A stretch of 64,000 bases of DNA from Phyllosticta citribraziliensis (taxonomy: Eukaryota), in assembly GCF_038025025.1 (NCBI RefSeq), contig NW_027117341.1:248001-312000 (forward strand), read 5' to 3'. The translations under genes and the position numbers were made by a program. Below are positions 43,073 to 64,000 of this stretch, one piece after another. The notes below the pieces were generated by a model that was not told the origin of the DNA, made no database searches, and worked only from the letters and a program-made list of their open reading frames with translations. Each line of letters begins with the position of its first letter. Within the stretch, counting starts at the first letter, position 1.

Positions 43073-45950
43073 CTACACAATCTCCCGCCCACTCGCCGTC
43101 ACCGCCACCGCGCCCGTCGTCGAACTCCTCGACAAACCCGGGCCCACCGGACTGCGCATCCCACTCGCAGCCGGCACCGGCGTCGCCGCCCCCGTCGTCG
43201 TGCCCTCGCGCTCCGTCAGCCGAATCGCCTCGCCCACGCTCTCGACGAAGTGGCTCTCGCCGCCCACCGTCTCGACGATGCCGCTGTCGACGAAGAGTCG
43301 CCATACGTCGTCGCCGGCGGCCGATTTCTTCTTCTTGCTGCTACTGCCCATCACGCTCGCTATGCTGGCTGAGCTCACTGCGTTTGTTGTTGAGCTCACT
43401 GCGTTCGCTGCGCCGCTCGCGCCGCGCCGCACGCGGCAGAAGAAGACGCGCACGCCGCGCTCGACGTAGCCGGCGACGATCTCGGCGAGCACCTGCGCGC
43501 CGGCGCCGTCGAGCGACGTGACGCCATGGACATCAAAGATGATGTTCGCATTATGCGCGTCGTCGCGGACGCGAGGCAGGGCGGGGTGAGCGGCGCCGGT
43601 GCCATGGTACTCGAGGCGCTTGAGGCGGTTGCGCAAGTCGCCCGTGTTGGCGAAGGTGAGGGGCTCGGGGATCTTGACGATGAGGGCGCCCTCGATGAAC
43701 TCGAGGGCCTGCGGCTCGGGCGCCGCGGCCGGGTGGTCCGGGTCGCCGTTGACGAAGCCCAGCTCGGCGTTTTCGAAGCGGTCCGTCGTGCCGGGGACGC
43801 GGCCGAGGATTTGGATGCGCGGGCGCGTCGAGTGCCGGATGACGCGCAGCAGGGACAGCCCGATGCCCACGGCGATGCCCTTTTTGAGGTCCCAGAAGAT
43901 GGTGACTAGGAAGATGACGAGCATGAGGGAGAGCTCGGAGAGACCGCGGATGCGCAGGAAGAAGCGGATGTCATGCGGGGCTTCTTCGACGAGCGAGCAT
44001 GCGACGACGGAGACCATGGCCGAGAGCACGCCTTTGGGGAGGTAGTAGAAGTAGGGCAGGAGGAACAGTACGCAAATGAGGGTGATGAGGGAAAGCAGTA
44101 TCGAGCTCATGGGCGTCTTGCCGCCCGTCGAGGCGTTGACTTTGCTGCGTCCGTAGCCGCCAAACGCGGGCAACGCCATGAAGAGACCGCCTGTGACGTT
44201 GGCAATGCCGAGCGCAACGAGCTCGCGATTGGCGCTGACGTGCACGTTTTCAATGCCATCCTTGGGCGTAGGCAGGCTTTTTGCAGCGACCGAAGACTCG
44301 AAAAAGCCCAGGAGTGCAATGGTAAAGGCCGTGCTAAACGCATCCGAGGCGTACTTGAGGTGTGAAAGTCGAAACGGGAGATGAACGCGGAAGAGGGCGC
44401 CGCCGCTGGTGTTGACGTTGCCCAGGATGGCGAGGCCCTTTTGGTCCAGACGGAGCTGCCAGGTGATTATGGCCGAGAGGACGACGACGATGAAGCGGTC
44501 GGGAATATATACGATCCACGAATAGCGGTGCTGCAGACGCTTCTTCATTTCCCTGTCCCGGGGGTTAGCTAGGCCAATGCAGCGACGTGACGACGTACCT
44601 GCAAAACATGATGATGAAAAAGGCGCTAAACGACACGGCGCACGTCAACTTGTGCGCCTTGCCCAAATGCTCAATGATGAAGATGAGCTTGTCAATGGTG
44701 CTCCCGTGCTCGACGCCGCCGGGGCCCTCGGCGAGGCGCGCAATGCCCAACTCGGGAATCAGCTGGTCTACGAAAATGACGACGCCAATGGCGCTGATGA
44801 AGCCCCGCAAAAAGGGCCTGCTCAGGACGTTGTCGAGAAACCCAAGTCTAAACAGACCGCTGAGGAGGATGACGGCGCCCGCGATGAACGTCGTGATGCC
44901 AGCAATCTCGGCATTGCGCTGGTCTGCGTGGTCGCCCGTGTGTCCATTTCGAATATTCTCTCGAACGACTTCTCCCGTGAGGAGGGATCCGGGGGCTTCG
45001 GGGCCTACGACCATGAGGGGGGCGGTGCCAAAAATGGCGTAGATGAAGGGGTTAAAGACGAAGCTGTACAGGCCATTTACAGGAGGGAGGTGACCCAGGT
45101 TGGAGGCGTAGGATAGGGACATGGGAATGTAAAACGAAGCCATGGTCAAGGCCGAAACAAAGTCTCCGCGAAGGTATCGCCATTTGTACTGCCGCAGCCA
45201 ATTGAAAATGGGTATATAATAAGCCAGGTACCTGCGTTTGGTCAGCGGTCTGGTCTGGCATCTTTGACAATCCGAGAGAAAAGAGTAGCATGAAGGCGCG
45301 TACATGGACCGTCTGTTTTGTATGCCATGGCGCTCCGCCAGCCAGGCCGTCGTCGTCGGCCGCTTCAGCGGTCCCCCACCAAGCAGCCCGTCCGTCACCG
45401 AGTCCCCCAGCACGTCGCCGACGCCGCCAGAGTTACCGCCGCCTGGCGGGCCATCGCTGGCGCCAGGATATGGTCCCCCAACGAAGCCGGAAAAGGTCGA
45501 GCCAAAGCTGCCGTAGCTCCTCTTGACGGGCGGCCTGGCAAAGGCGTTTTCTCTGCCGTCGGCGCCGTAGCCGGGCGACTTGTCGTCGCGGTTCTGGCTC
45601 GCGAGCAGGCGGGTGCGGGCAGAGGGCTCGTCGGTCGAGTCGTCAGCTGGCGGCGGGTCGGCGCGCGCCGAGGAGCGAATCGAGGTGGCCGAGGCGTGGT
45701 CGGGCATGGTGGGACGGATGCCGGTGTCCTCGACGCGCGGTTCGTGTGCTCCCGAGGGCTCGCGGGTGTGGGAGGACGCGGGACTCATGAGGTCCTCGGG
45801 CGAAGGCGAAGAGGCAGAGTGGGCCTCGCGCAGGCGAGTTGGGTTTGACGGGGCATGTTGGTGTGCGGCGGCGCTGCGTGACGTCGAGGCGGTGCGGGAA
45901 TGGATCGACGCGGGCCGTGACGACGAATTGGACGAGGGCGGCGATGGCAT
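43073..45950 (-). CDS. SulP/SLC26 anion transporter with STAS domain (yeast YPR003C-like)
   Basis: GDFVSALT, YIPMSLSYA, VGPEA, LSRPFLRGFISA, NRELVALG, FGGYGRSKVN, PLTFAN, IIFDVHGVTSLD. Introns 45232-45303 and 44553-44598. Confidence 0.92.
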
Positions 45951-46633
45951 GCTGCGGCGGGCCCTGGACGGGCTGACCGGCAGAGATTTTTTTTTTTGCT
46001 TCTCTGTTGGAACTTGTCGTGGATGGGCGGTCAGAGGCGTCGCAAACGAGGGTCACAGGATGACAGGCGCCGTGCGTGGGTGGTGTAGTTTGTAGTAGGG
46101 CGGGCACTATCTTTTAACTCGGCCGGCATTCCCTCCTGCGCTGCCGGGCCCAGCAAGGCACCCGGGGCGAAGACTAGCCATCCCCGTCTTGAAGCCATCG
46201 CCAGTGTTTTGGTCGTCGAAGCCAATGGTGGGGAAGACATATTATTGTTCGGGTCTGGCCTCAAGTCTTGCTGCACCAACCACTCGGAGACGTCGCGTTG
46301 CAAATCATCGACGCTGCGTTACCGACCACTTTTTTCAACAAGACAATAGTCTGGCCGCTACTGCTCGAGTCGTGCCACGGCTTACTGTCCATTGTGCGGT
46401 GAGCTGGTCCCCATCTCATGGCCGACTTTTGCCGACTTGTGCTGCCCCCGTCGGCCTGCCGGTCAATCATGTCTCGCTGCCAAAAAGCCAAAGGTTCGGC
46501 CAGCGCCTTGTTTCATCCGGTCAACACCAGCTTTGATTTGATTCCTGATCCCTGTATAACTCTACGTGACGCCAAACGCCGCCCTGACTTTTTTGCCCTA
46601 CGCCAACACGTCCGGGATATCTGCAACCTCGCT

Positions 46634-47846
46634 TCACGCCTCCGCCTTTGCTGCTGCCTTTTGCTTCTTGAGCGCCTCTTTGCGCAGCGCAATCTCCTTG
46701 GTCAAGTCTGCCTTTTCCTTTTTGGCCTTTTTGGCGGGCTTCTCTGCCGGCGCTGACTCCTTGGCGTCGTCGTCCGTCTTTCTCTTCTTGCTGTCCTCGC
46801 TGCTGCCCTTGATTTTCAGCCTCTCCGACCTGTCGACTCCCTTTGGCTTCTCCTCCAGCACGTCCGCCTCGTCAATCCAGAGCTCCTCGGCCAGCCAGAT
46901 TGGCAACGCGGTTGTGTCGGGGCCCTTGATGTGGATGGAACGAATGTTTTTCCAGCCCTTGGGCACCAGCTTCTCCTGAGTTGTGAGGGCAGCGACAACG
47001 GCCTCGAGGTTTTCGGTGATTTGGGCGGGCTCCCAGCTTGCGTGGCCAACGCGGATGGCGGTGGTTGCGGCAGGGCTGAGGTAGACTAGTGCGGAATCAA
47101 GCGCCTTGTTGATATCCTTTGCGACGGCATCGGCAGAGCCGACAATGGCAGAGCTCTTGTCGTCCTTGGACTTTTTGGCCTTCTTACCCTCGGCGTCCTT
47201 TTGGACCTTTTCGTTGCCCATCAGGTGGACGGGAACGGGCCTCTTTGCCGTGGACTTGTAAAAGACCTTGCCCAAAAGCTTGGGCAGCAGCGTGACGATG
47301 CGGTCGTCTGCCAGGAAACCGTCGTACTCGGCAAACAACTGCCTGCGCGCCTCAAACGTCTTGTACTTGGTCTTGAGCTTGGAGACGCCAACGACACGGC
47401 CGATGCGGTCGCGGAGTTCGGCGGGGAACGCGTCTTCTGCGATCAGGTCCTTGTAGGCGCGCTGGGGATCGGCGGTGCTGGGAGAGAGTCAGCTTTGATT
47501 GCAATGCGTAGGAGGGATCTTCTCACATGAGGCATAGTCTTTGCGCAGGTTGGGCTAGGCTGTGCGGCAGGGCAATCCTGTGGGGCTTGAAGCGCTTCTT
47601 GTCGGTGATGTGCTTCTTGGTGGTCACGATGAGCCAGACGGGAGTCTGGTCCTCGGACGAAGGTTCGTCGTCAGACTCGGCATCGTCCAAAAGGCTCTTC
47701 TTGGGGGCCTCGATGGCCTTGGACTTTTGCGCGGACTGGATGTGGGCGGTCAGGGCCTTGGCGGCGCGCAGAGCCTGGGAATGGTCGACGCGGTAGGGCG
47801 AGCCGGACTGAGGGATGGTAGTCACGGCGGAGGATTTGGGCGCCAT
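46634..47846 (-). CDS. CIC1: Ribosomal L1 domain protein (Cic1/Utp30/RSL1D1)
   Basis: PHRIALPHSL, LCLITADPQR (across intron 47478-47526), FLADDRIVTLLPKLLGKVFY, WKNIRSIHIKGP...ALPIW; Lys-rich tail. Confidence 0.88.
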
Positions 47847-48252
47847 GATTTCTGAGAGGGTTGCAGAGTCGTGGTGGTCGAGGTCAAATTGAAATTCATG
47901 GAGAAATTCTGGCCGCAGCGGGTCCGTGCACAATCCGCGTCGACGGAAGACGGCTCACCGCCCTGGAGACCGCCCGGCGGGAGAAGTCGAGGCCATTGGC
48001 CAACGCGAGCGCGTCAAGACGGGTTGATGACGGCACTTGGCAGACAGGAATGACATGGATGTGGTGGAGCAGAGAGAGCAGAGGCTGGGATGATTCAGTC
48101 CGAGGTGCCCATCAAACAATGGCCATGAGACGCAGGCAGTCGTCATTCTGGAACAATTCGCACAAGCCAGGGCCGGGCGGGAAACACCAAACGTGAAGCT
48201 GAAAACAGACCAACGCAACGCAAGCGAGGCGAGAGGAGGCAGCCTCGTAAAG

Positions 48253-48889
48253 ACGCGTGAGAGTGAACTGGGCGTGGCGGCGGTACCCTACCCACGGCTA
48301 GCAGAGGCCGGATCAGGCCCCGAATGCAATCATGGTTGCAGCCCTCAATTCAAGACGCGCCCCCCGGTATCCCGTATGTATGTATGTATGTATGTACATG
48401 TAGCCTGCACGAGGTGATAATCTTGAGTGACGCCGAATTCTTTTCTTGCTGTTCTTTTCCCTTCGTTTCCGCCCTGCCCTGCCCTGCCTGCCTGCCTGCC
48501 CGGCGTCGCCCTCTCTCTGCTGCCCGCCCTGGCCTGGCTCCGCTCCGCTCCCCTCCCCTCTGGCTGCCGTGGCCGAGGATCCAAAATCCAAAATCCAAAA
48601 TCCAAAAGTCTGAGCGCCCTCCCACTCCCACTCCACTCCCAACCCAACCATCCCCGTCCACACCACCGAGGCGCGTCCGCGTCAGGCTCCTTCAAATTCA
48701 TTCCCGGCCACCGACACTCCTCTTTTCTTCTCTCTCTCTCTCTCTCTCGCTCTCTCCCTCCCTCTCTCTCTCCCCTCTCCGCCCTGTCCGTCATGGCCGC
48801 ATCCTCCTAATCCCCTCCCCCGACTGCTAGTGTCGCCCCGTGTGCCACTCCCGCGGTCCCTCTAGTCGCGTGCGGCTCCTCCCACGCGT
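48253..48889. promoter_or_regulatory. MCB elements (ACGCGT) upstream of TOS4
   Basis: Exact ACGCGT at 48253 and 48884 plus several CGCG cores; TOS4 is an MBF/SBF target in yeasts. Confidence 0.5.
48579..48606. repeat. (ATCCAAA) x4
   Basis: Directly visible upstream of TOS4. Confidence 0.85.
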
Positions 48890-48955
48890 TGCACCTCGAC
48901 CTCGTCTTCTCTTCTAGCACACGCTTCCACCGCGTTTCCAACGACGCTCAGCACC

Positions 48956-50594
48956 ATGAGCCGGTCGCCCGTGAGGCAGAACGGCCTCTCGGCTGACGCC
49001 GCCTCCTCATCGCGACCGCCCCCGGACTCGACCAAGCCTTCACTGCTGCCGCCCTTTGAGCCTCTGTCGTCCTCGCCCATAGCACGCCCGCCAAAACGCA
49101 AATATGACGACGGCTCCTTTCTCCCCAAGGCCGACCTCAAGTACTACCCCACCCCCATGCCCACCTCGTCCACCGGCATCCTGCCCTCCTCGCCGACGCG
49201 TCAAGACCGCTCCGCCCTCCATCGGACCATGTCCAGCTTCTCCGAACGCAACCCCCTGTGTGACGTCCCGTCCATCCAGGTCCCGCCCAGCGGCGAGCCT
49301 CTGCTCATGGGCCGCTCGAGCAATTCCTCCCACCACCAGCTGTCGGCAAACCGTCTCATCTCACGCGTCCACATTCGGGCCGTATATCACCCTCCAAACG
49401 CGAACCACGCGTCGGGTCAGATTGTCATCGAGTGCATGGGCTGGAATGGCGCAAAGGTGCACTGCCGGGGCCGCGTCTACGAATTGACCAAGGGAGACAC
49501 GTTTGCTTCGGACATGCCCTCGAAAGAAATCATGTTGGACGTCCTGGATAGCCGCGTCTTTCTCGCCTGGCCAGTCAAGATTGAGAGGAGAGCAAGCGTG
49601 TCGGCAGAGTCAGACACGACTTGGAATGAAGAAAGCCCCTCCAAGAAAAGGGCCTCGCGTGCTGCCTCTGCTTCGGTCTTTCCGTCGAGCCCTCCCGCCT
49701 TTGCTCCCCGGTCACCCGCCTCCCTCCCTGTCGAAGCAGCCCCCACGGCCGAAGAAACCTTTTTAGCCTCGGATCCTGCCGACCTCCAACACCCCACTGC
49801 AGTCCACGTCTTTGAGGATGGTGAATCTGGTGACGAGCGTGCCAAGGAGTCTTTGGCTCTCTCTCAAAATTCGCGCGCTGGTCCATCCTCCCAGGAAAGC
49901 GCCAAGGATAACGGCGGCCACGAATCCCAGGACTCTGATTTTTCCGACCACGACGAGGAGAACGATCCCATTGTCCACTCGTTTGGTCCATATGGTGAAA
50001 ACATTCTTTCCAGAATCGAGGGCTTGTCTCACAGCAACACCAACTCGCGCAGGCGTCGCCGTCCACTTGGCCAGTCCGGTCCGGGTTCTCCCGTACCTCA
50101 ACAGGGTGCACCAGAGAAGAAGCACGTCAACGAGTCTCCAATCAAGAATCACGTCATCAACCAGCTGGCCTTTTCCCGGCTCCACTCGATGCCTCTGTCG
50201 ACCATTCTTAACAACCTCCCATCCGAGCTGCGTGGCCCGGCCGACGAGAGCAGGCCTCGTCGTTCTGCAAAGGACGCCCTGCAGGAAGAGCAAAATGCCG
50301 AGGTCGCCGCCAGACTCACCGGCGACGACCTCCAAAATATCCTCGACAATGTTCCGTGCATCGGGGAAATCAACCGCGTTGGCAAGGACGCCTCTGGCAA
50401 GGCCCTGGAAAACGAGTACTACTACATGCCGGAGATGGACGACAACAACTTGAGACGCGACGCAGTCGTAGGAGGCATTGGCGGCACTGGACTCCGTTCA
50501 GTCAGAAAGGCTCACAAGGTAGGTACTCACAGATGTTGGCAGTTCTCTTGCTGACAGTCTTTAGCAATACTACTGGAAGCGCCCGAGAAACTAA
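48956..50594 (+). CDS. TOS4: FHA-domain transcription regulator Tos4/Plm2
   Basis: YPTPMPTSSTG, FHA core GRSS...ISRVH...GWNG, NQLAFSRL, GKDASGKALENEYYY; final exon QYYWKRP after intron 50519-50564. Confidence 0.9.
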
Positions 50595-51254
50595 GCCTCG
50601 CAAAAAACGTCGGTTGCATTCGTCGGCATTCCACGTTTCGAGTCTGGATCAGCCCCAAGTCACGCTCGCCTCGTCTCATGTTCGGCCTGCTGTCCTCGTC
50701 TCTTGTCACACCAGGCCGGCACATTCACGGCCGAGACCAAGTCGCGTCCAACACGACGACATTCCTCTTCGTTCTTCGCCAAGGAAGGCATTCGTGTTTT
50801 GCACGCCAACCCGCCATGAACGGACGCGTCGACGGCACGGCTGTCTCCTGGCTGGGTCCATCCCTGCCCTGCCCTGCCCTCTCCCCACCACAACCCCAAC
50901 CCTCTACACAAGCACCGAATTGTATCATCACCACCACCTGTCCGCTGTCGTGCTTTTCCTTTCCTTTCTTTTCTTCCCTCCCCCCAAAAAGAGACCCCCA
51001 GAGTTCATGTCGTTTGCGCTTTCTCTCTCGTGCACGAACAGCTTTATTCCCCCGTCCCTTTTTTTTTGTTTTTTTTTTTCTCTTTTCCCCCTTTTGCTGT
51101 GTTTGTTTCTCTTTTGCCGTTGCTCCTGTCTTCTTTTGAAGCAGGAGCTCTCACAAGATCAACCATTGGATGCATACGTCGACGCACGCACGCTTGGATG
51201 GACGAGTTCTCGTCGTACTTGTCGCGCTACCTGTCGTCGTACGTCGTTGGATTG

Positions 51255-51294
51255 GATGGAATGAGATGGAATGAGATGGAATGAGATGGAATGA
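51255..51294. repeat. 10-bp tandem repeat (GATGGAATGA) x4
   Basis: Directly visible. Confidence 0.85.
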
Positions 51295-52888
51295 TGGACC
51301 GCAATGGGGCTGTTGGATATGACGAACCGAATGGATCAATGTCTGGATGGATGGATAGAGCGGAGGTTTTGTGGACCTCAGCTGTCTTCTCACCGAAGAG
51401 AGCGAGTGAGTCAGACTAGAAGCAGGTGGTGGCGGTGGTCGTCGTGGTCGTGGGAAGCGGTAGGTAGGTACTGTAGCATTGCTCGCTTGCTCGCCCGCCT
51501 TTTCCTTCCCTGGTGGCGGCGGCGGTGGCTAAGCCAAGGTACCCCCTACTAGTTGGCCGTTTTGGCCCGTCGTTGCCGTTATGTCGTCGTCGTCGTCGTT
51601 GTTGTTTTTTGCCGTTGGAATTTTTTTTTTTTTTTATCTTTCTTCTTCCTCGTTCTTGTCGTTGATGTTGGTGGTGGACGAAGAGTTGGAGAGTTGGAGA
51701 GATGGGGAGACGCAGATGCAGGTGGATGGATGGATGGGGTGTAAGAGAGGATGAAGACGGAGAACGAGGAGCAAGGTGGACAGAAGTCATGCATGATGTA
51801 CGCTACGCTACACTACTACGCACGCACGCACGCACGCTCTCGGCGTGCACGAATCCAATTGGCCTGCAAATGAGCCTGGACTGGACTGAGAAATGAAGCG
51901 AAGAGGTTTGATCCGACATCAGACACTTCTCTTTCTGAAATGTCGTTGTCTACGACCGGCCCATGCTGTCTGTCATGAGGTGCGTTCCGTCTGATGCTTT
52001 CGACGGCATCCCGGGGTGCGGCGTACGCTCACTGCCGTATGCTGTATACTAGCCTGGGCTGGCACTTCCTTCTCACCTGCCATGATGCCATGCCATACCG
52101 CGCCATACCGCGCCACGGGCGTCGTGTCGTGTCGTGTCGTGTCGTGTCAATGGCAGGTAGACAGCCGCATGCATTGGCGAATCGTCCGGGACAGGTTGTA
52201 TCGTGACATCGATCTAGCGCACTTCAGTCATGGCAAGAAGAGTAGATGAGGCTGTGAACATTGTAAACGCTACAATGCTACAAGCTACTGATGCGCAGAA
52301 AGACAAGACCTGGAACGAGTAGACAGATAGACAGATGCATAATGCACGCCACAAGGCGGCTGAGGTGCTACGACAGGCAGTGCAGTGCTCGTGCTCGATG
52401 GGTATACAGCTATGCTAGACCAGACCAAACAGGCTCAACAGGCTAAAGCAACAAAGAAAGCGGCCGCGCGAGCAATCTATGAAGGATAAAAGAGAAAGAG
52501 AGAAAGGAAAGGGGGGATGGTGAGATGAGAGATGAGAGGTGAAAAGAGATGGGATGAGACATGATGAGTGAGTGCAGTGCAGTACGAAAGAAAGAAACTT
52601 GCGCTCCGACGGTCTGAAATAACTAACCGATGCGATGCGATGCAAAGTGGGAAGTAGATGAGGAAGGAAATGCTAAGACATGCTGAGAGATGCCGAGAGA
52701 TGCAAGACGACAAAGGGGTATCTCATGCTCCAAACAAGCAGACCAGACCAGACCAGACGAATCGACCCAAGCGCAAGATCGCAGAATGCTGCGTGTGCAA
52801 GAGGAAAGCATTCAAGCTCAAGCGCAACCCCCGGACAAGACAACACGCTTGTCTCAACAGCTCGAAGCTGGAAAAGTCGTAGTTTGCT

Positions 52889-54637
52889 CTAGCCAGAAGT
52901 CTTCGGCTTCTTGGGATGCGGATTCGGCGACTTGTCGGACGTCAAGTCCTTCCGAGAGCGACTGCGACCAGAGCGATCCGGTGGTTCAGATGGCGGAGCC
53001 ATGGAGCCTGGTATCTTTGCCAAGGCATCAAGGGCCTCACAGATGAGATCTCCGTGCATTGGTGCCCAAATCTTGTAGATGTTCTTGACCAGCTTGTAAC
53101 TCGCCCACCGGTCGCTGGGGAAATTGAAAGAGGCGACTTGGTGGCGGTAAAAGGTTGGAGATTTCTCGCGTACGTCATGCGCGAGGTGGGCGTATATCTC
53201 TACCGTCGTATTGTCGTATACTGCGGAGAAACAGAGGATTTGTCGTTGGAGTTTATCCTCTAAACTTGCTCGTTGGAAAAGCTCGATGAGTCCCCGAGAG
53301 GCAATCAAGGCCGTCTCGAGGCTTTGGTTCCGAGCTTCCGAGATATCGCCCGACGTCCCTTTCGCCTCGCAGGTGAAAAAGGGAAAGTACTGCTCTTCGC
53401 AGCCCCGACTGAAACTGCATTCACGGGTCGGACCAAGCCGCGCTATCGCCCCAAGCTGATTATCATTGAATCTGGACCAGTAAAATCCGGCGGTGTAGTC
53501 GGGTTTCGGGCAATTGGACGCGAGGATCGGAATGCAATGAGACCAGACATCATCAACTGACTCAGTCAGGTGCTCCAAGCTGTTGTAGTCCAGATAATTA
53601 AGGTGGTCCACATGTGGCACGACGAAAGGTCCAACATCTTGAACAACTTTTGCCTCGTTCTTCCCTTTGGTCTTGCGGCCTACAAGCTCAAGGACTCTCT
53701 CATCAAAGAAGGATGGGACGGACTGTTCCTGTGTTTTAAGTTGCTGAACGAGTTTCTCGGCTTCATCAGGGAGGCCTCCCACTGGTGCTCGACTGTGCTT
53801 TATGAAAAACATTTGGACAGGGTCGTCCTTCAACAGGCGAGCTCTGGTTTCGGGAGAGTCCGATCCCGGATCTGAGATATCGAGGTTCCATATCTCTTTG
53901 CTGTAGTTCCTTCGGTCCTTCTTTCTCGTTGACGAAGAGCGGCTCACACTACTCATTATGGAAGGTCCGTCAGACTCGAAGAAATTGGACGGCCAGACAA
54001 GGTGTTTCCGCCAGTAGTCGACAGGATTAGTTTCCTCCTGCTCCTCTTGCCGGGAATCTGTAGGGAAACACCGTGGAGCGTCTATGGTAGCAGGGACAGG
54101 TGTAGGGGATTGTCGTGTTTCTAGTTTGTGTCGATGTGGAGATGGATACGCGTCGTCTTCTTCGGATCTTGTTCGTTTCTGGGCTGTACCTCGCTCAATT
54201 GGTGGGGGAGAGGAGCATTCAACTGTCTGCCCTTCGTCTTTAATCGATCTTCTCTTCTGACCTGACGCTTGTTGATTCGATGGTGGAGAAGGGGAGTTTT
54301 CCGCGGCGTGCTCGGCGTCTTCGTACCGTTTCCGTTTTCGTCCGGTATTTTGTGCTGGATCGAGTGGACGAGCCTGGCACGCCAGTCAATTGATGCCTGT
54401 CTACTCACAAGGTGTAGAGACATACCTCTGAGGTGTTCTGGTCTCTGAAGGGAGCAATTGACGTTTCGAGAGATTGGGACGAAGTACTGTTCCGAAGGCG
54501 TGCGCTTCGGCGAGGACTGGCAGTTTGGTGGCCTCTTGAGGCTACAACGCGTCAGCGAAAGCGCGTAAAGCGCGGCGGGGAAGCGGTTGCTCACCTTCTG
54601 GCCGAGGATGCGAAGGAGAAGTTAATGTTCGAGGCAT
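52889..54637 (-). CDS. PD-(D/E)xK-like nuclease-fold protein (DUF7924-like), copy A, catalytic motif intact
   Basis: Three-exon model 54637-54595, 54541-54426, 54373-52889 (GTGAG and GTATGT donors, frame continuous). Motifs RRSARL, RKRKR, YWRKHLVWP, PKPDYTAGF, YFPFFTCEAKG, ARNQ. Family name from memory. Confidence 0.8.
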
Positions 54638-54788
54638 TCTGAAAGCATGGACAGCGCGACTTTAAAGGGAGAGCGCGGACTGGACAAGGAGGGTGAAGAG
54701 CGTGCAGGAGCAAGACGACGTTGAAGGTATCCATGTAAGGTAGGTGGACGACCAGGGTCGCGCACGGATCACAACCTTAAAGTGGGAG

Positions 54789-54862
54789 GCGCCCCGCGTG
54801 GCTAGCGCTTCGCCGCACGCGCGCTGATTGGCTGGTTGCCGCTGTAGCGCGCGGATCCGCAG
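54789..54862 (-). promoter_or_regulatory. Conserved two-part upstream element, copy A
   Basis: + strand GCGCCCCGCGTGGCT...AGCGCGCGGATCCGCAG, matching the blocks upstream of copies B and C. Confidence 0.65.
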
Positions 54863-55349
54863 ACATCGAGGTCGAAGCTCAAGCGATTGGAGCTGACGCC
54901 TCCAAACCATCAAAATGGGCGCGTTTCTCGTCGAAGCGATGAGCATAGCCCTCCACCCAGGCGTCAAAAGATGGCGAGCCTCGATTGGCCAATGCAGCTG
55001 ACACCCGCAGTCGCGTGTTGTATCAGGCACGCGCCAGTCTACGCCGCACACGTTGAATCAGGCAGAACCCGACAGCAACACTTCTCGACACAGCATTGGA
55101 GGCAGTGCTTCGGAAGCGAAAAGCGCTGACCTCTATGTAGGTCTTTCTGTCCGAAGAACGCGCATGAGCATCGCCTCATACAGGAAAATCAGCTGAAGTC
55201 TTTGCAGGCATTTTCAAAACCGCATTTCGATTGGCGCTTTGCTATTGATAGGCTGCCTGGCGTTTGCTTGATCTATCGGCACACCTTGAGCCACAATGCC
55301 AGTAGGTATCCACCGCCTCCTCCACAGATCAACACCCTGCGTCCTCAGG

Positions 55350-57884
55350 TCAGGAGGTAGACTTTGCTACGGAATCGTTGTTCGATAGAGATTTCGTGTG
55401 GTCAGCAGACTGTGGAGCCGGAGGCTGTGGTTGGCTTGTGTCAACAGTGTCCACCGGCTCCCTATCCGCTGGTGCTGGTGTAGAGACCTTGGGCTTCCTC
55501 GCCAAGCTGTCAATCGCCGAACAAATGCGCGCGTGGTGCATGGGTGCGAAGACCTTATATATGTTCTTGAAGAACCTGTAGCTAACTTCCCAGCCTTGTG
55601 TCATGTAATGCGAAGTAAAGACCTGGTGCCGATAGAACCGCAAGCACTGACCGTCGGAGTTGTACAAGTCCGGGACGTCTGCAAAGTGCACATACATGTG
55701 TATTCTGTCGACCGTATAAACGGCAGAGAAGGCGAGAATCTCGCGGTGGATTTCGGGGGCGCGATTGGCGGCTCTGAACAACTCGACCACGCCGCGCATT
55801 GCGACCAGCGTGTTTGCGATATTGAAATTCTCGGCGTGTGCAAAAGAATGGCTCTTCGGTTCCACAGTCAAAAAGGGAAGGTACATGTCCTCGGCGAGCC
55901 AGAAGAGGCTGTGGTACTTGTCGACGCCGAGGTCGCGATTCAATTCGATGAGAATTAAGCGTTGGCTTCTGGTAAAGGCGTACTCACGATGGAAACCGGC
56001 GGCGTAGTAGGGTTTGGGAGGGTAGGTTTTATGGATTGAGGCGCACATAGACCAGGTTTCATCGATTGTTTCGGTGAGGTATTTTAGACTGTCGTCGCCG
56101 TTTGCGAAGAGGGTCTCCGCGCGTGGTGCTACTTTTGGCCCTATGTTGATGGCAATATCCGTCCGACTAGAGCCAGAGCCTCTCATTCTCTCAAGGATTC
56201 GCGCGAATTCGTTTTCAGACGCGGAGTCCGGTACGGATTGCTCGGTCTGTGTCAATTTCCGACAAATCTCTTCGGCTGAGCTGGAGAGCCCCTCTCCTGG
56301 GTCGCGCGAATGATCTTGTAAAAACCATATTCCCTTTTGGTTTTTAAGAAGGTGTTTTCTAGCTTCTGACGAGCCCGTAGAACGGAACATTGCTGAGCGT
56401 TCTGAAATAAATGAAGGCTCTGAGGGTCCTGCGTCCAGCTCTGGCAGAGACAGACTCCAAGCTACTGTTATTTTTGGGTGAATTCGGATTTTGCGCTGAG
56501 AATCACTTCTCGAAATTGAGCGGAGAATGTCTTCTTTTGTAGGTCTGCCAGACTCAAAGTATTTGGTTGGCCACGAGTGAGTCTTGCTCCAATATCTGAC
56601 AAAGTCATCGTGTGTTGCATTATCCGGAAGAGCGTCCTCATGATTCTGGCCAGAAGCCGTTGGGGATTTTGTTTCGCAGACTTCATTGATGTGCGCCAGA
56701 GTGGATGGTTGTGGGGCTTCTTCGCCGAGTAGTGTGGAGTCGGGAGCCAATTCTGCCTCAATGGTGGGCGTAGCATTGAAAGGAGACGTCATCCCAGGAG
56801 ACAATGCATTTGGTTTTGATACTTGCTGACCTGCAGCGAGACCGTCGATGACTGAGCGGATGCGCTTCAAGTGCATTTGTGCCCAAATTTTGTACAAGCT
56901 CGTAGTAAATTCGTAGCTCAGCCACTTATTCTTTGGCTCCGAACTGAAATCATTGCGCTTGATTAGGACGCTCCCATATCTTGTTTCTTGGTCGCCAATT
57001 TCGACAAAATGGCCGTAGATCGCCACTCTGTGACAATCATATGTGACTGAGAAGAAGAGAACCTCTTGATGAAGCTCGCTCTCTCGCTTGGACCGCCGGA
57101 AAAGCTCTACAACACCGTGCATTGCGACGGCGGCGCTGTGGGTGTTTCTGCGCAAGGCGCCAAGTTCACCCCTCATGGTTGTTACTTGGCAGGCGAGAAA
57201 TGGAAAGTAAAGGGAAGGAGAGACCCTGAATTTACAACGTTGCTCTTCTCGATCGAGCACACGCAGTTGGTCATCGCTGAAAGCCTTCCAGTGGAAGCCC
57301 ACTGCATAGTGGGGTTTTGGAACAAGATCGCAGGTTTTGATGCATGAAGACCAAGGTTCGTCGACTGTCTCCACAAGATTTTTGAGATCTTTGTGACCGG
57401 CTGTGGCGAGATCTTCTGCAGAGGCAACGACCAAGTACCCAATGTCTTTAATGATTCTTGCTTCATGATGACCCTCGAGTCTTGAAATGGTCGTTTGGAA
57501 TTTGTCGTCGTCGAATCTCGATTCGGAAGGGACTTTTTGTCCGGTCTCAAGCAAACTTTGGAAGACATTCTTGCTTGTGTCGGAAGGAGAAATCTCAGAC
57601 CTTTTAAAGAAAGTTTCCAGAGGATGTCGTGAGTTGATGGGGTACTCGTATGGGTCTTCAGAAAACTTTCGCAACGTGGCCAGTTCATTACCTGCGCGTG
57701 GATTATGCTCGACGGGCTCAGGTAGCCAGTCTACCCGCATCCTTTGACGGTCCGGGGACGAAGAGGCTTTGAATTCGCTGCCTCGTTTTCGTTTATGACC
57801 TGCGCTTTTTGACAAATGTCCAGAATCTTCATTCGTTTTCTGCATCTCGGCTCCGTCAGGTGCCGGGGCTTGTGCGACTGTCAT
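55350..57884 (-). CDS. Double-domain DUF7924-like protein, copy B, both domains degenerate
   Basis: 844-aa ORF with HKRKR. Domain 1: PKPHYAVGF/YFPFLACQVT. Domain 2: YWSKTHSWP, PKPYYAAGF/YLPFLTVEPK. 5' UTR intron 57944-58004. Confidence 0.85.
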   Translation of the reverse strand: MTVAQAPAPDGAEMQKTNEDSGHLSKSAGHKRKRGSEFKASSSPDRQRMRVDWLPEPVEHNPRAGNELATLRKFSEDPYEYPINSRHPLETFFKRSEISPSDTSKNVFQSLLETGQKVPSESRFDDDKFQTTISRLEGHHEARIIKDIGYLVVASAEDLATAGHKDLKNLVETVDEPWSSCIKTCDLVPKPHYAVGFHWKAFSDDQLRVLDREEQRCKFRVSPSLYFPFLACQVTTMRGELGALRRNTHSAAVAMHGVVELFRRSKRESELHQEVLFFSVTYDCHRVAIYGHFVEIGDQETRYGSVLIKRNDFSSEPKNKWLSYEFTTSLYKIWAQMHLKRIRSVIDGLAAGQQVSKPNALSPGMTSPFNATPTIEAELAPDSTLLGEEAPQPSTLAHINEVCETKSPTASGQNHEDALPDNATHDDFVRYWSKTHSWPTKYFESGRPTKEDILRSISRSDSQRKIRIHPKITVAWSLSLPELDAGPSEPSFISERSAMFRSTGSSEARKHLLKNQKGIWFLQDHSRDPGEGLSSSAEEICRKLTQTEQSVPDSASENEFARILERMRGSGSSRTDIAINIGPKVAPRAETLFANGDDSLKYLTETIDETWSMCASIHKTYPPKPYYAAGFHREYAFTRSQRLILIELNRDLGVDKYHSLFWLAEDMYLPFLTVEPKSHSFAHAENFNIANTLVAMRGVVELFRAANRAPEIHREILAFSAVYTVDRIHMYVHFADVPDLYNSDGQCLRFYRHQVFTSHYMTQGWEVSYRFFKNIYKVFAPMHHARICSAIDSLARKPKVSTPAPADREPVDTVDTSQPQPPAPQSADHTKSLSNNDSVAKSTS

Positions 57885-58165
57885 CGCAATTTGGAAAGAA
57901 GTGGTCGCCGTTTTTGAATAGATTGCTTGGTCTGGCGATCTGCCTGGATGAGGGAGTTAGCGAAAGTAACAAACTCTCGACCCGCTTGCTATCCACTGAC
58001 ATACAATGGGAAGGAGATTCAGGCGTCTCGGCGGCCAATGTGTCGAAAAGTATCAGAAAGGACTTGCAAGGAGAAGGGCGTCGAGCGCAAGAGAGTAGGC
58101 AGAACTAGGTAGCAAGCTTCTGAGACAGGCAACAGCGCTCAGCGAAATCGAGCCCTGTCCAGAGA

Positions 58166-58240
58166 GCGTCCTCCGTGGCTGATGCGGCGTCACATCAGAC
58201 GTGGTTAGTTGGTTGGTTGCCGAAGCGCGCGGACCCACAG
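58166..58240 (-). promoter_or_regulatory. Conserved two-part upstream element, copy B
   Basis: + strand GCGTCCTCCGTGGCT...AGCGCGCGGACCCACAG. Confidence 0.7.
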
Positions 58241-58638
58241 CCATCTGATGGGGATACCTGTAGGGAGGCCTGTGCGCCGCTCGCTTCCCGTCCGGTGCTG
58301 GTGACGTTAGTGGTTACTGCGAAGGTACCTACCTAGGTACGACGCTTCAAATTGGTTGCTAAAGTCGTGGCGCACACAACAAGAGTAGGCAAGTTGGGAA
58401 TCGGTATCTTCCATCGAGGAGCATTCGTTTCCTCTAACAGATGACTAACAGGGAGCATTCATAAACTATAGCTCACATTTGATGAGAAAAGCATGAAAGC
58501 CGAGATTGAAGCAAAAAATGACATGAAAGAAGCCCAAGCTAATGCTGCAATCTCGCTTGATGAAAGATGCGATTTTCTCTTCTTGCTCCGCGCCGTCTGA
58601 CTTCAGCGCGGGCTTTTGGCCACTGACTTCCGCACCAA

Positions 58639-60189
58639 TTAATCTTCCGCATCACCAGCAGACTGTGAAGCTGGAGGCGGTGACTTGGTAGTCTCGGCAG
58701 TGTGCAAACGCTCTCCATGTCCTGGTGGTGGAGAGGAGTATCCAGATCCTCTTCCTAACGTTTCGAGAGCAGAGCAAATCCGTTTGTGATGCATTGGGGC
58801 GAAAACTTTGTAGATATTCTTGATGAACTTGTGACTAGCCCATTTGTCACTAAAGAACGACGAGCTGAAGATTTTGTGCCGGTAGAATTTAAGTCGCTGG
58901 CCGTCAAGGACGTCAGCAAAGTGCGCGTACACTACCATCAGGGAGGCGTTGTAGACTGCAGAGAAGGCGAGGACCTCACGGTGGACTTGGTGAGCACAGT
59001 TTGCAGCCCTGAAGAGTTCGATGACCCCGCGCATTCCAATCAACGCGTTTGCAACAGCTGATTGCTCGGCCTCTTTGAAAGAACATGTTGGCTCCACTAT
59101 GCAAAAGGGAAAGCACATGCGCATGGTGACGCGGGCGAATTCTTCCTCCCCTGGGTCGACATCTAAGGCTGACATTGCGTGAATTTGGTTCGTAGAAAAT
59201 GCGCCTGACAAATCGAAGCCGACAGCATAGTAAGGCTTGGGAGGATAGGATTTGTGGATTGAGACGCAGAAAGACCATGCTTGGTCAAATGAGTCGGTCA
59301 GGAACTTGAGACTATCGTCTTCGTCGACCAGGAAAAGCGTAGTCAGGCAAGGTGCTACTATGGGGCCAATGTGCTTCGCAATCCGGGACACATTCCAGGA
59401 TTGACTCTTTTCCACTAACCGTTCAAACTGAACGTCAGAAGCAACTGGTGTCACCGGCTGTTCAGTGTCGATGAGTCTTTGGCAGACCATCTGCGATGCG
59501 CTCGAGAAGCCCTCTTCTGGGTCTTCGGTAGCTATCAGCAAGAACATTTCAGCCCGACGATCGCGAAAAAAGAGCTTTCTGGCCCATAGTGAACGCGTGG
59601 AACGTAAACTGTCCTCGGAGTCTTCAGACTCCTCGGAAGCTGGTTCCAACAACGGTATGTTCAAGTCCCAAGCTTCCACGACTCTCGAATGAGTCCTCGT
59701 AAGAGACCAAAAAAGAGCCGACCTGGTGATTCGGCGAGAACTGAAGTATTTTGGTGGCCAGTTGTGGGTTTTGCACCAGTAGCTGATATGGTCGCGACGC
59801 CGTGACTCTTTTTGGGAGATGTCTCCATATAAATGGCCAAAAATTGGGGCGTGGAATTTTTGTGATCCTGGATTGGTTGGCGTGGAGGACCTCGGAGCTT
59901 GCGTGGCGAGAGCCGTAGGAGTAGAATGCGTGCTACTATCGTCGATAGGCTTAGGAGTGGTATTCCGTAATGTCTTGTTATCGGAAGAATTCGATGGTGA
60001 AAGGTGTTTGCGCGATGCCGTTGAGAATCCAACGTCGCTACTTCGTTTCCGTTTTCTGCTTTCGCCTTGTTGGTATTGCACGATTGGGGGCGCTATTCTG
60101 GCATCTGCATGTCCTTCGTGGAATTCCCCTCCATGATTATTCGAGTCTTGGGCTGCCGCTGCGTCGAGTTGGAAAGGGTTTGTCGCCAT
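58639..60189 (-). CDS. DUF7924-like protein, copy C, degenerate motif
   Basis: 516-aa ORF; RKRKR, YWCKTHNWP, PKPYYAVGF, FPFCIVEPT, HREVLAFS, FAPMHHKRICSA. Confidence 0.85.
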   Translation of the reverse strand: MATNPFQLDAAAAQDSNNHGGEFHEGHADARIAPPIVQYQQGESRKRKRSSDVGFSTASRKHLSPSNSSDNKTLRNTTPKPIDDSSTHSTPTALATQAPRSSTPTNPGSQKFHAPIFGHLYGDISQKESRRRDHISYWCKTHNWPPKYFSSRRITRSALFWSLTRTHSRVVEAWDLNIPLLEPASEESEDSEDSLRSTRSLWARKLFFRDRRAEMFLLIATEDPEEGFSSASQMVCQRLIDTEQPVTPVASDVQFERLVEKSQSWNVSRIAKHIGPIVAPCLTTLFLVDEDDSLKFLTDSFDQAWSFCVSIHKSYPPKPYYAVGFDLSGAFSTNQIHAMSALDVDPGEEEFARVTMRMCFPFCIVEPTCSFKEAEQSAVANALIGMRGVIELFRAANCAHQVHREVLAFSAVYNASLMVVYAHFADVLDGQRLKFYRHKIFSSSFFSDKWASHKFIKNIYKVFAPMHHKRICSALETLGRGSGYSSPPPGHGERLHTAETTKSPPPASQSAGDAED

Positions 60190-60437
60190 TTTTGACGGAA
60201 TATGTTCGTCGCACGGGGTTTCGGCCTGTCTTCAATCAGCAAAAGCAAACGACCTTCCCTGGTGTTGCTTACCATTGACCTGCGATGCGAAAGACATACG
60301 ATTGATCGAGATGTCCAGGAAGCCAAAGTCTTGAAATGGATGTGCGAGGAGAAGGGATCGTAGCGCAAGACTCTTAGGCAAAAGGCCCTTCGTTAGAAGC
60401 GAAACGGTTCCATGAAAGCCAAAATCACATTTGGAGA

Positions 60438-60504
60438 GCGCCCTGCGTGGCTGGTGCGGCGTCATGACTTGGTCAGTTGGCTACTGAAGCGCGCGGATCC
60501 ACAG
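60438..60504 (-). promoter_or_regulatory. Conserved two-part upstream element, copy C
   Basis: + strand GCGCCCTGCGTGGCT...AGCGCGCGGATCCACAG. Confidence 0.7.
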
Positions 60505-61133
60505 CCAGCCCAGAGCCATCCTGCACCGCATGTTGGATGAGGCAGAACTTGTGTGGCACTCTTTTGGCCGTTAGTCGGTGACACTGCCATTTCTGTGTCT
60601 GCTGGGGGCAATTTCAGGGCGAAGAAGCTTGGATCGCCATCGTTGTAGGCTCCAGTCAGAATTTTGGGCCATCAGCAACGCGGGACGGGTATTCTGCCTG
60701 GCTCAGCCATGTGCGGCGCGGGAACGCGCCAACAGGCAGCAGACGCGTTCGATGCCGGTTGGATGATCTTGACTCACAAGGCTTTTGACAAAGAGACGGG
60801 AGGAGACCTGGGAGATGTCGTTGGTTGTCGCGCGTGATGTGCGTGTCGCTGGGAGCGACCGCCGGCCAATCGGGAGACACCTGAAGCGCTGCAAACGCGG
60901 AGAGAAGTCCAAATAAGGTATGGGGCGTGCGTGCCGATCCTTAGCGTTGCCTGCTAAAATTAACCGAAGAACAACAACCCGTCGTCATGTCTTGTCGCCG
61001 AGAGGCGCATTGTACACTCAATATATCTTCGTTCCTGCTCTCGCTTTCAACATGGAGTTGCTCAACATCCCCGAGTCGCTCTTTTCCTTGCGACTTACGC
61101 GTCCACCCACCGGACACAGAACTTCTTGCCAGA

Positions 61134-62609
61134 ATGGACCACTCTGCGGCCCTCAAGCGAAAAAGGCCCTCTGACCTTCAGTCCGGGAATGGGGAATGCG
61201 GACCATCACGTCAGAAGCAATGTCCCAATGACCCAACCAAGGAAGAGGAGTCTACGTCGCTCAGCCATGGAAGACTCCCTACTCAGACACAGAACGATGC
61301 CCCTGCACCAGTTTCCGAATCCGCCGAAAGTGTCCAGTCTCCAGCAGCTGCGCCTGAAATGCCAGAGTTCTTCCGCCCGATTAACTACTGGCGACGACAT
61401 CATCGCTGGCCATCTTATCGTTGCACCGGAGACTGGTGGTCTTTGAACCATTTGCAAGATCTCAAAGTTCCAGAAACGCAAGACGACGAGGATGAGACGG
61501 ACCCTGAGGAAAGCTGTTTTTCTATCCTTCCTGGATACCGAATCAGAAAAAGCGAAGCCCGTTTTAAAACCGTGGACGATATTCCGACAGAGGTTCTGTA
61601 CGAGAATCAGATGCTAAACGCGGGCAATGTGGCTCATTCTACGACAAGAGACGTCTGGTTGCAGGATCAGGAGCATGACTCGAGAGATGAGCTTTCGGAC
61701 GCGAGCGCAGCGCTATGTCGAAGTCTGCTCCAATCAAAGGAGCCGACTCCGACAGGCACTTTGTTTGATGATGAATTCTTCAAGAAGATTTGCAAAGAAC
61801 TGAAATACGAAAGCAAGACCAAGCTCGTCAGCTATGTCGGATCATTGCTTGTTCCTTCTGTTGCAGAGCTCCGCGCAAGGGGCGAGCCCGGTCTTGACAT
61901 TCTCACCGAGACAGTTAGACAAACCTGGCGCAGGTGCATCCCTGTTTTTCCACCATCTCCGGTCCCCGACTTTTCCGTGGGCTTTTATAGAAGAGCCTTG
62001 GGGGCAGAAAGGGAGGCTAAGCTTTGGCCTTATCTTGGCGAAGCACCGGAGACAAGTCCTTTCGCAGCTACGACAAACATGCTGTTTCCTTTCCTCAATG
62101 TCGCAGCTATCGGAACACGTTCTTCGGAACGAATGAATGCTACGGAAGCGGGGCTCCAAAGTACGCATTGTGCAATCATTGCTATGCGTAGTGTTATCGA
62201 ATTATTCCGCTGCGTGAGCCGCGCACACGAAATCAACGGCGAAATCCTCGCCTTTTCTGTCACGTACGACACCAGATGGATCCAGATTTACGGTCATTAT
62301 GCAGATGTATCTGAGAGAAATGTCCATTTTTACAGACATGATATTCTGAGTAACCCCTGGGTCTACAGAGAAAGTTCTGCCGATACGGATAGATGGTTGA
62401 GCTATCAGTTCATCAAAAGTCTGTACAAAGACTGGGCACCACGCCAATTGCAGCGCATTTGCTCGGCGATCGATGATCTCCCCTCTTGGGACGTCTTCAG
62501 GGTCAGTAAATCCCTGCCAGGATCACAGAGTCCACCGCCCGTGGACGAGGAGAAAGAGAAGTTTGCAAATATATGGCCGTCGTTCCTGAAGGGTGGAGAA
62601 CATGACTGA
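61134..62609 (+). CDS. DUF7924-like protein, copy D, inverted, degenerate motif
   Basis: Likely start MDHSAALKRKR (the ORF is open from 60987); YWRRHHRWP, PVPDFSVGF, FPFLNVAAI, EILAFS, IYGHY, QRICSAIDDL. Confidence 0.83.
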   Translation: MDHSAALKRKRPSDLQSGNGECGPSRQKQCPNDPTKEEESTSLSHGRLPTQTQNDAPAPVSESAESVQSPAAAPEMPEFFRPINYWRRHHRWPSYRCTGDWWSLNHLQDLKVPETQDDEDETDPEESCFSILPGYRIRKSEARFKTVDDIPTEVLYENQMLNAGNVAHSTTRDVWLQDQEHDSRDELSDASAALCRSLLQSKEPTPTGTLFDDEFFKKICKELKYESKTKLVSYVGSLLVPSVAELRARGEPGLDILTETVRQTWRRCIPVFPPSPVPDFSVGFYRRALGAEREAKLWPYLGEAPETSPFAATTNMLFPFLNVAAIGTRSSERMNATEAGLQSTHCAIIAMRSVIELFRCVSRAHEINGEILAFSVTYDTRWIQIYGHYADVSERNVHFYRHDILSNPWVYRESSADTDRWLSYQFIKSLYKDWAPRQLQRICSAIDDLPSWDVFRVSKSLPGSQSPPPVDEEKEKFANIWPSFLKGGEHD

Positions 62610-62837
62610 GGGCCACCTGTGCATGGAGTCGCTCACTTGATACCTTAATTCGCCTTGGAAACGGAATTTCTCTACCTCTTTCCTGTGTGGACCACGCTCT
62701 GTAAGCACGTGTACATTACCGACGATGCCATGGTGCTCTATAGTACTCTTTCCTCTGTCCCAAAGTGCAAGGAAGAAATCCCAGACGCCATACAAAAAAA
62801 AAAAAAAAAAGACTATCTTCAAGACGGACCTCTCGCC

Positions 62838-63891
62838 TTAGTCTCTATCCCGAGCATGATACGATGACCTGTTTTCCTCGAGGGATCGACCTTCCGAATA
62901 TGACGGAGGCGAGGCGCCCTCTCTCAAGGACATTTGAACGTCTGCGATTGTCCTCAACCTCTTCCTGACCTCCCTGACCAACCGAATAGGATGCAGTACC
63001 AGAAATCCAACCATGACCTCCAGCATGGGTACGCCGTCAAACAGGTAGATGAAGACTTCATGGCTCCCGACGAAGCCTTCCATCCCGGTCACAAATTCGA
63101 TGCCTCTGACGATGCTCCGAATGACCAGCATTACGGCCGCAACTTCCAGGACGATGAAGTAGCCCAGCCAGTTCACGCCCGGGTCAGCGCACATGTTGGT
63201 GGTGGGCGACCGCCTGAGCCTGGCGTGCATGCGGCCGCAGGTGATGGTAAACACAGCCAGAGCAGCAAGCTGTGCAAAAAGACCGACCAGGACAACAATC
63301 TTGCTCAGGCGCCGGCCCTCGGGAGTACCACTTGCAGGAAGAACAGTGCCAACCAGCTGGGTAAAAATGGCGACGATATCGATCAGGACATAGAGCTTGG
63401 TCGGAGAGCAAGACCAGCAGGAAATGCAGCATCGCGCACAACAGCCCCTGTCGCGTTTGCGTTTCTTCGGGACTCCGTCATCGTGGATAGCGGTTACGAG
63501 GCGTCCGTACGACATGTACACGCTGGCGGCGAGAAGTGGCGGTCCAACGAGCAGCAGCATGTTTTGCAGGAGCCAAGGGTCAAGGATTGTAACTTGAGTG
63601 TGTGCCTTGGCACGCTCGTAGTAGCCAAAGACTTCGCCTGAGGGTGTTAGCCAGTCTGTTTCATCGAATATCAAGATCAAGAGCGGCAGACTCACAAACT
63701 CCACCCAGAATGAAGGGAATGAACGACCAGGCCCGCAACCAGCAGAGGAATCCCAAGTGAGCGATCGTTGCTATCGCGAAGAGGGCCATGAAGGCGTATC
63801 CGGCACTCTCGCTTGGTCGGTACTCCCAGAAGACTACGACCATGGAGCCGTTGACCACTGGGCCGTAGGGAGGGCCATCATTGAACGCCAT
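62838..63891 (-). CDS. RTA1-family multi-pass membrane protein
   Basis: YRPS, FIPFILGGVC|EVFGY (intron 63638-63695), GPPLLAASVYMSYGR, IRSIVRGIEF, HEVFIYLFDGVPM, HP: typical RTA1/Rsb1 motifs. Confidence 0.88.
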
Positions 63892-64000
63892 AGCGGAAGA
63901 ACGGTCAAAAGGAGAGCAAATTGATTCGGTCAAGATTGAAGACGTCGATGACGCTCAAGCTTAATGGCAGCGGAGAATCGATGGATGCGATGTATTTGAA

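Follow-up and report, generated by a model that had tools for sequence, protein, structure and literature searches.

Why would a genome keep, side by side, one copy of a domain with an apparently complete nuclease active site and four copies that have lost it? The question is raised by positions 52889-62609 of a 64,000-nucleotide stretch of the fungus Phyllosticta citribraziliensis (contig NW_027117341.1, positions 248,001 to 312,000; hereafter, the window), where an earlier note made from the letters alone had described four adjacent paralogous genes, here called A, B, C and D, carrying five copies of one domain in uninterrupted open reading frames (ORFs). That description holds. Five copies of DUF7924 (PF25545) are spread over the four genes, two of them (B1 and B2) in B, and the uninterrupted ORFs lie at 52889-53956 (A, minus strand), 55350-57884 (B, minus strand, 844 aa), 58639-60189 (C, minus strand, 516 aa) and 60987-62609 (D, plus strand). 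Pfam matches to PF25545 have E-values of 6.7e-60 (A, 202.9 bits), 6.6e-111 (B, two stretches, 369.7 bits), 7.8e-47 (C, 160.2 bits) and 6.3e-58 (D, 196.5 bits), compared with a gathering score of 27, and all five domains match the full 225-position model. A six-frame scan of the whole 64 kb with a family hidden Markov model (HMM) recovered exactly five domains (i-E <=1e-63), with the next match at E 0.6, and a count of five is far above chance. The explanation that we favour, to which we give about an even chance, is that the four genes form a tandem array, specific to Phyllosticta, of a restriction-fold nuclease family whose members are dimeric and probably nuclear and have split into live and dead subunits.

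The state of the active site in each copy carries much of this argument (Table 1). The family consensus reads NEA (first helix) ... PQPDY ... FPFLTCEVK ... ADRQNAHS ... SISHD. Among 158 aligned domains, comprising 153 from 150 listed representatives and the five window domains, the Asp of this motif is present in 132, the Glu in 147, the Lys in 121 and all three in 109, so that D...ExK, proposed from the window copies, is the conserved motif of the family. The motif table given for the five window domains was reproduced exactly. Although each of these domains matches the full Pfam model, four of the five lack the family D/ExK: the D...(D/E)xK pattern is complete in A (D97, E141 and K143) and is replaced in B1 (H, Q, T), B2 (Y), C (Y, T) and D (A, I). 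When the first-helix Glu (alpha-1 Glu) is included, A alone among the five has the complete set (hereafter, live, as opposed to dead), with only the alpha-1 Glu kept in B1, E and K in B2, E in C and Asp in D; B1 also retains the R/N/H/S of the helix after the motif. Copy A had been called the one intact copy, which is true of the alpha-1 Glu, D, E and K and true within the window, but in A the acid and Arg of ADRQ are missing, as is the His of SISHD (Tyr or Phe in all Phyllosticta copies), and the same species has a further fully live (type-2) copy outside the window, represented by P0235/P0236, on a contig equal in length to the one that carries A. In the public model P0236 (948 aa), an unrelated N-terminal region is merged with this type-2 live domain. 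The scaffold is retained in all five window domains. Conserved non-polar columns kept, of 34, number 25 in A, 30 in B1, 27 in B2, 24 in C and 30 in D; conserved polar columns kept, of 27, number 16, 16, 15, 9 and 14, respectively. C is the most decayed, keeping 33 of 61 family-conserved columns.

The family itself is large. In a DUF7924 search of 1.84 billion representatives, 1017 clusters passed E<=0.001, of which 609 passed 1e-10 and 111 passed 1e-30, and the named relatives seen are all from Pezizomycotina and titled either hypothetical or DUF7924. The window domains are 32-41% identical to A, share 28 invariant columns and, at 160-203 bits per domain versus 290-380 for typical members, belong to a divergent, Phyllosticta-only branch of DUF7924 with lower scores. 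Apart from DUF7924, Pfam scans of A-D and of the 26 longest among 150 listed relatives gave no domain, with one sub-threshold match to RRF_GI seen among the relatives. Literature searches for DUF7924, PF25545, PF20516 and PDDEXK_12 found no described function for DUF7924, only a copy-number listing.

In its predicted structure, copy A has a restriction-endonuclease-like (PD-(D/E)xK) fold, as had been proposed. Copy A was the copy modelled singly with AlphaFold2 (AF2), and C was seen in a complex run (predicted local distance difference test (pLDDT) 84). With a 137-row alignment, the A domain was modelled at pLDDT 95.6 and a predicted template-modelling score (pTM) of 0.93; the single-sequence model (pLDDT 36.7) was unusable. 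When this model was searched with VIA-align, which is independent of Foldseek, proteins titled as restriction enzymes or nucleases filled 14 of the top 16 rows (Z 4.8-8.6). Matches included DrdV (Z 8.6, 135 residues aligned, root-mean-square deviation (rmsd) 3.3), BpuSI (8.2, 151, 4.0), the HsdR fragment 3h1t (8.1, 128, 3.9), TT1808 (7.3), DUF820 (6.0) and a second HsdR fragment (5.2), and also SgrAI, NucC, EcoRI, Bse634I and BsoBI. The remaining two rows are human mitoribosome large-subunit chains (Z 9.5 and 8.4), which are the widest structural matches, with 206 residues aligned. Foldseek gave the same picture, with DrdV at a probability of 0.97-0.98. In the model, D97 stands directly ahead of strand 98-102, and E141 and K143 lie at the end of a second strand (133-142), after which comes a long helix. 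The type IIG/IIL and type I enzymes BpuSI (3s1s), DrdV (7lo5) and HsdR (3h1t/2w00) have this fold in common with A (Z 8.1-8.6, 128-151 residues aligned), including D ahead of a core strand, ExK on the next and a conserved Gln in the following helix. However, they have no detectable sequence similarity to DUF7924, which lacks their fused methyltransferase or helicase and is a eukaryotic family whose N-terminus is long and disordered and carries a basic cluster.

Other searches added little to the fold assignment. With DUF7924 set aside, the named clusters closest in language-model features belong to PF20516 (PDDEXK_12), a fungal PD-(D/E)xK nuclease-like family (score 0.90, 23 of 30 matches, mostly Ascomycota), to which HMMER found no match at E<=1; this possible kinship is treated as a lead only. 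A profile search of Protein Data Bank (PDB) sequences returned nothing beyond a designed binder (E 0.46), PADLOC and NCBIfam scans of the five domains and P0070 gave only chance-level matches (E 0.012-0.033), and a search of viral folds in BFVD gave 0 matches at E<=0.001, with weak UL24 and phage nuclease rows at template-modelling (TM) scores <0.3.

Structure prediction also suggests that these domains pair. In a complex test that ran without family alignments built here, the A and C domains scored 0.64, compared with 0.00 for the best control; among solved complexes 51 of 78 reached this score, and among mismatched pairs 2 of 108. Three runs share at least 89% of contacts, with a partner pLDDT of at least 84, and the predicted interface is two-fold symmetric, involving residues ~27-80 of both chains and including the first core helix. 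The pairing of A with a dead paralogue that had been suggested is predicted in this test. Live/dead heterodimers of nuclease-fold paralogues are known from XPF-ERCC1 and Mus81-Eme1, and the two mitoribosome chains (3j7y/7a5f) are, we assume, a non-catalytic dead nuclease-fold pair. The likeness is that duplicated nuclease-fold subunits pair, with one or both dead yet kept; the difference is that no sequence relation to these systems is seen and that pairing in the array is a prediction. A literature search combining the mitoribosome chains with restriction endonuclease found nothing, and one on restriction-endonuclease-like expansions in Pezizomycotina found nothing relevant.

The dead copies are probably old. 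In a FastTree phylogeny of the 158 domains, A, B2 and C fall in a 12-row clade with 99% local support, adjoined by the D and B1 groups, with weaker support for the B1 group (45). All members of these groups whose clusters were looked up come from six species of Phyllosticta, in which the relatives have neighbouring accession numbers and shared contigs. This suggests a syntenic array in each of the six species, as judged from accession numbering rather than DNA. Copy content differs among the arrays, reflecting birth, loss and fusion, but each species examined has at least one live copy. Dead states recur as well. Each of the five representative domains of B2/C type in the tree clade has Tyr at the Asp position, as does every tabulated cluster member; D-type proteins (3/3) have lost both the first-helix Glu and the Lys, and B1-type domains have lost both Asp and Lys. 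Domain identity to P. citrichinensis orthologues is 96.4% for A and 94.5% for C, and identity to P. citricarpa counterparts is 76.3% for D, 62.2% for B2 and 39.8% for B1. Conservation is higher within the domain than in the flanking parts of the protein for A (96 vs 81%), for C (94 vs 83%) and for D (78 vs 63%). Fused genes recur too: two-domain dead-dead genes comprise B and, in three other species, P0003/P0182/P0183, P0004 and P0199, and a dead-live fusion is found in P0002 of P. capitalensis.

The contigs point to transcription and splicing at the locus. Contigs of run X1 are identical to the window except for five short segments that they leave out, four of which are bounded by GT..AG on the gene strand (two in A and one each in B and C); we read these contigs as spliced RNA, on the evidence of the joints rather than of the run record. 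A, B and C each occur in spliced form and a contig covers D; contig presence carries no information on expression level. In runs X2 and X3, parts of B and some other bins are without contig cover, and nothing is drawn from these gaps. The coding part of B lies under one X1 contig with no joint, which places both domains in one continuous ORF. A same-species public model, P0151 (1045 aa), runs half of B1 together with B2 and A as a single protein; this B-A merger is unsupported by contig joints. The ORF first drawn for A was correctly placed, but its start, the ATG at 53956, was not, as the coding sequence extends upstream through two introns to 54637, and the spliced translation is identical to stored protein P0173 (547 aa). 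For D, whose ORF opens at 60987, the likeliest start is downstream at 61134; the resulting 491-aa protein is identical to P0206.

Upstream of the domain, the four proteins share further features. Each has one KRKR cluster in its N-terminal part, as had been noted, except that the cluster of A lies upstream of the ATG at 53956. This is probably a nuclear localization signal. Such basic clusters are characteristic of the family; runs of four K/R residues precede the domain in 52 of 110 family representatives, compared with 7.5% of shuffled upstream regions. A W(x4-6)WP motif also lies upstream of the domain in 68 of 110 DUF7924 representatives. In the spliced translations, the N-termini of A-D are polar and disordered, with no hydrophobic leader.

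These observations bear on the simplest alternative, that B1, B2, C and D are on their way to becoming pseudogenes. Catalytic residues are indeed lost in four of the five domains, and codon bias is weak. Nevertheless, the ORFs are uninterrupted over 491-844 aa, spliced B and C are present with D under contigs, identical dead states are found in orthologues at 48-94% identity, the C and D domains are more conserved than their flanks, and the dead domains keep 24-30 of 34 conserved non-polar columns. Because the dead states recur and domains are conserved over flanks, we conclude, in line with the earlier note, that the dead copies are not decaying neutrally; this alternative is largely refuted, and we regard it as scarcely credible.

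We propose instead that the ancestor was most likely a dimeric nuclease with a nuclear-localization-like basic cluster, and that after tandem duplication the copies diverged, some remaining live subunits and others becoming long-lived dead ones. A, with its alpha-1 Glu, D and ExK, would be the live subunit and B1, B2, C and D the dead ones, which would have been retained because they still fold and pair. B would be a covalently linked dead-dead pseudo-dimer, and C and D would be free dead subunits pairing with each other or with A, such pairs having one active site or none.

Several points weigh against this proposal. The best fold-search scores (Z 8-9.5) are middling, values of 7-8 being common in models without a clear match, so the case for the fold rests on the uniform make-up of the match list and on the motif positions. 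The predicted arrangement of D, E and K in A was judged by strand position rather than by side-chain distance. The complex test cannot single out a family member, as close cousins of true partners passed in 10 of 12 calibration cases; because cousins usually pass and family alignments were unused, the score supports the capacity of DUF7924 domains to dimerize in general, not specific binding of A to C. By the count of polar columns, A (16/27) is no better kept than B1 (16/27) or B2 (15/27). B compared with P0183 of P. citricarpa shows no excess of domain over flank conservation (51.6 vs 49.8%). Finally, to judge by the alignment, the losses of the ADRQ acid and Arg and the clade-wide loss of the His may leave A inactive or altered.

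This last point leads to a further reading, that the whole Phyllosticta clade, A included, is past catalysis and now provides structural or nucleic-acid-binding scaffolds, comparable to the dead restriction-fold pairs of large complexes. Besides the missing ADRQ and SISHD residues, the low window scores (160-203 vs 290-380 bits) and the identity of the widest structural matches (206 residues aligned), the two mitoribosome chains that we take to be non-catalytic, are in keeping with it. However, in each species examined the alpha-1 Glu, D, E and K are together intact in one copy or more, across 41-66% identity, and without selection on these residues the presence of a live copy in every species would be hard to account for. 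We consider the scaffold reading somewhat unlikely.

The earlier note had gone further and seen in the locus a conflict system, with A as a nuclear nuclease toxin and the dead paralogues as its antidote, decoys or DNA-binding regulators; neutralization might, for example, work through inactive heterodimers. The ingredients are suggestive, as a nuclease fold with basic clusters is predicted, live and dead copies are linked and predicted to pair, and copy content of the array varies among species through birth, loss and fusion. In the part of the Neurospora crassa pangenome study drawn on here, DUF7924 is among the most copy-number-overdispersed families (PMC13412767). Base composition is also unusual: GC content at third codon positions (GC3) is 0.52-0.57 in A-D versus 0.70-0.82 in three neighbouring genes (43073-50554), and overall GC falls from ~0.57-0.61 to 0.50-0.55 across the array. 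Nothing here, however, shows toxicity, an antidote, drive or recognition, and no presence/absence polymorphism was seen. Going by protein accession order and shared contigs, a related array is found in all six Phyllosticta species, not sporadically. The dead D-type is the best conserved across species, which fits a housekeeping partner better than an arms race, and the further live copy P0235/P0236 has no obvious private partner. We therefore judge a toxin with its antidote or decoys to be unlikely, and the roles that such a conflict locus might have, in spore killing, allorecognition or defence against mobile DNA or mycoviruses, to be as improbable. Its broadest form, in which DUF7924 proteins across fungi would be nuclear restriction-like conflict nucleases and the Phyllosticta array a linked poison/anti-poison set, is held with the same low confidence; if true, it would be a new type of fungal toxin-antidote system.

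Two known systems had been offered as parallels. The comparison with Spok meiotic drivers stands at the level of the superfamily but not of architecture. According to the sections of the Spok study used here, killing requires the PD-(D/E)xK domain, the best HHpred match of SPOK3 is HsdR of V. vulnificus, the SPOK3 motif lies within ~21 residues (219-240) and is accompanied by QxxxY, a Cys cluster and a resistance-conferring kinase domain, and Spok proteins in general join the nuclease domain to a C-terminal kinase, an N-terminal coiled coil and a Cys cluster (PMC6660238). Compared with this published description, A shares the PD-(D/E)xK domain, and its model also matches the V. vulnificus HsdR, but 44 residues separate its D from ExK, and neither a kinase nor any other Spok-like module or second Pfam domain occurs in A-D or in the 26 relatives scanned, the longest among the 150 listed. 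Crinkler effectors, the second parallel, have a signal or header domain fused to a nuclease module. This parallel fails, as no Crinkler or header domain was found at E<=1 and no N-terminal signal peptide was seen in A-D.

That these are genes of a mobile element, or were recently domesticated from one, we regard as very improbable. In the section of the N. crassa list drawn on, variable copy number comes with the placement of DUF7924 beside RNase_H and zf-CCHC families (PMC13412767), and one relative, P0225, a 522-aa protein of Pochonia chlamydosporia, bears the source title 'reverse transcriptase'. The sole domain on record for P0225 is PF25545, and the title is either an annotation slip or a hint of retroelement linkage in some fungi. 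Pfam scans of A-D and of the 26 longest listed relatives found no transposase, reverse transcriptase or other fused domain; copies are 32-41% identical and hence not recent; introns and, as read from accession numbering, gene order are conserved across the genus. The signature of repeat-induced point mutation (RIP) is absent from the window genes, with normal indices (TpA/ApT 0.49-0.62 in genes, composite index >1.03).

If the array is a split family of live and dead nuclease subunits, as we favour, its interest is twofold. DUF7924 is large and widespread in filamentous ascomycetes, and the fold and probable active site proposed here, together with the predicted two-fold dimer, make it a testable nuclease family. 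The Phyllosticta array is, moreover, a natural experiment in which live subunits, long-lived dead subunits and covalently fused pairs occur at one locus, and is well suited to the question of why pseudo-enzymes are retained after duplication.

Table 1. Coordinates of genes, introns, domains and motifs of the DUF7924 array (positions in the window)
Feature	Position	Strand	Details
Gene A	52889..54637	-	547 aa; three coding exons, 54637-54595, 54541-54425 and 54372-52889
Gene A introns	54542-54594 and 54373-54424	-	X1 contig joints; CT..AC ends on + strand
A domain	53027..53692	-	alpha-1 Glu; PKPD 53495-53509; CEAK in 53360-53380; ARNQ in 53324-53338
KRKR of A	54326-54337	-	Basic cluster
W(x6)WP of A	53990-54013	-	Upstream motif
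Gene B	55350..57884	-	844 aa; single ORF; two DUF7924 domains
Gene B 5' untranslated region intron	57943-58003	-	61 nt; X1 joint upstream of the ATG of B
B1 domain	56844..57500	-	PKPH 57306-57320; CQVT in 57180-57200; ALRR (LRRN)
B2 domain	55509..56207	-	PKPY 56004-56018; VEPK in 55854-55874; AENF; alpha-1 Glu replaced by R
KRKR of B	57783-57794	-	Basic cluster
W(x6)WP of B	56568-56591	-	Motif ahead of B2
Gene C	58639..60189	-	516 aa; 529 aa from first in-frame ATG of spliced RNA, 60275
Gene C intron	60225-60271	-	X1 joint
C domain	58762..59427	-	PKPY 59227-59241; VEPT in 59086-59106; AEQS; alpha-1 Glu replaced by V
KRKR of C	60043-60054	-	Basic cluster
W(x6)WP of C	59755-59778	-	Upstream motif
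Gene D	61134..62609	+	491 aa; divergent from C; no intron seen; X1 contig 61010-62783
D domain	61779..62474	+	PVPD 61959-61973; VAAI in 62091-62111 replaces ExK; AGLQ; alpha-1 Glu replaced by K
KRKR of D	61155-61166	+	Basic cluster
W(x6)WP of D	61389-61412	+	Upstream motif

Three non-coding intervals also stood out in the contigs. The fifth segment missing from X1 contigs, 55137-55207, lies in the A-B spacer and is likewise missing in run X2; it is a 71-nt intron-like segment with GT..AG on the plus strand, between two minus-strand genes, and the sole plus-strand ORF close by (54971-55129) encodes 52 aa. This joint may mark an antisense or non-coding transcript. In the B-C spacer, 58415-58470, which contains GACTAACAGGGAGCATTC, contig depth reaches up to ~1689 versus ~328, all long contigs break, and loose ends occur in X1, X3 and X4. 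A tRNA gene was ruled out (zero tRNA in 50000-64000), and the interval is probably a short dispersed repeat. To the left of A, at 52118-52148 and 52512-52547, paired loose contig ends are present on both sides in X1 and X2, which suggests further splice joints or a repeat in a flanking transcript.

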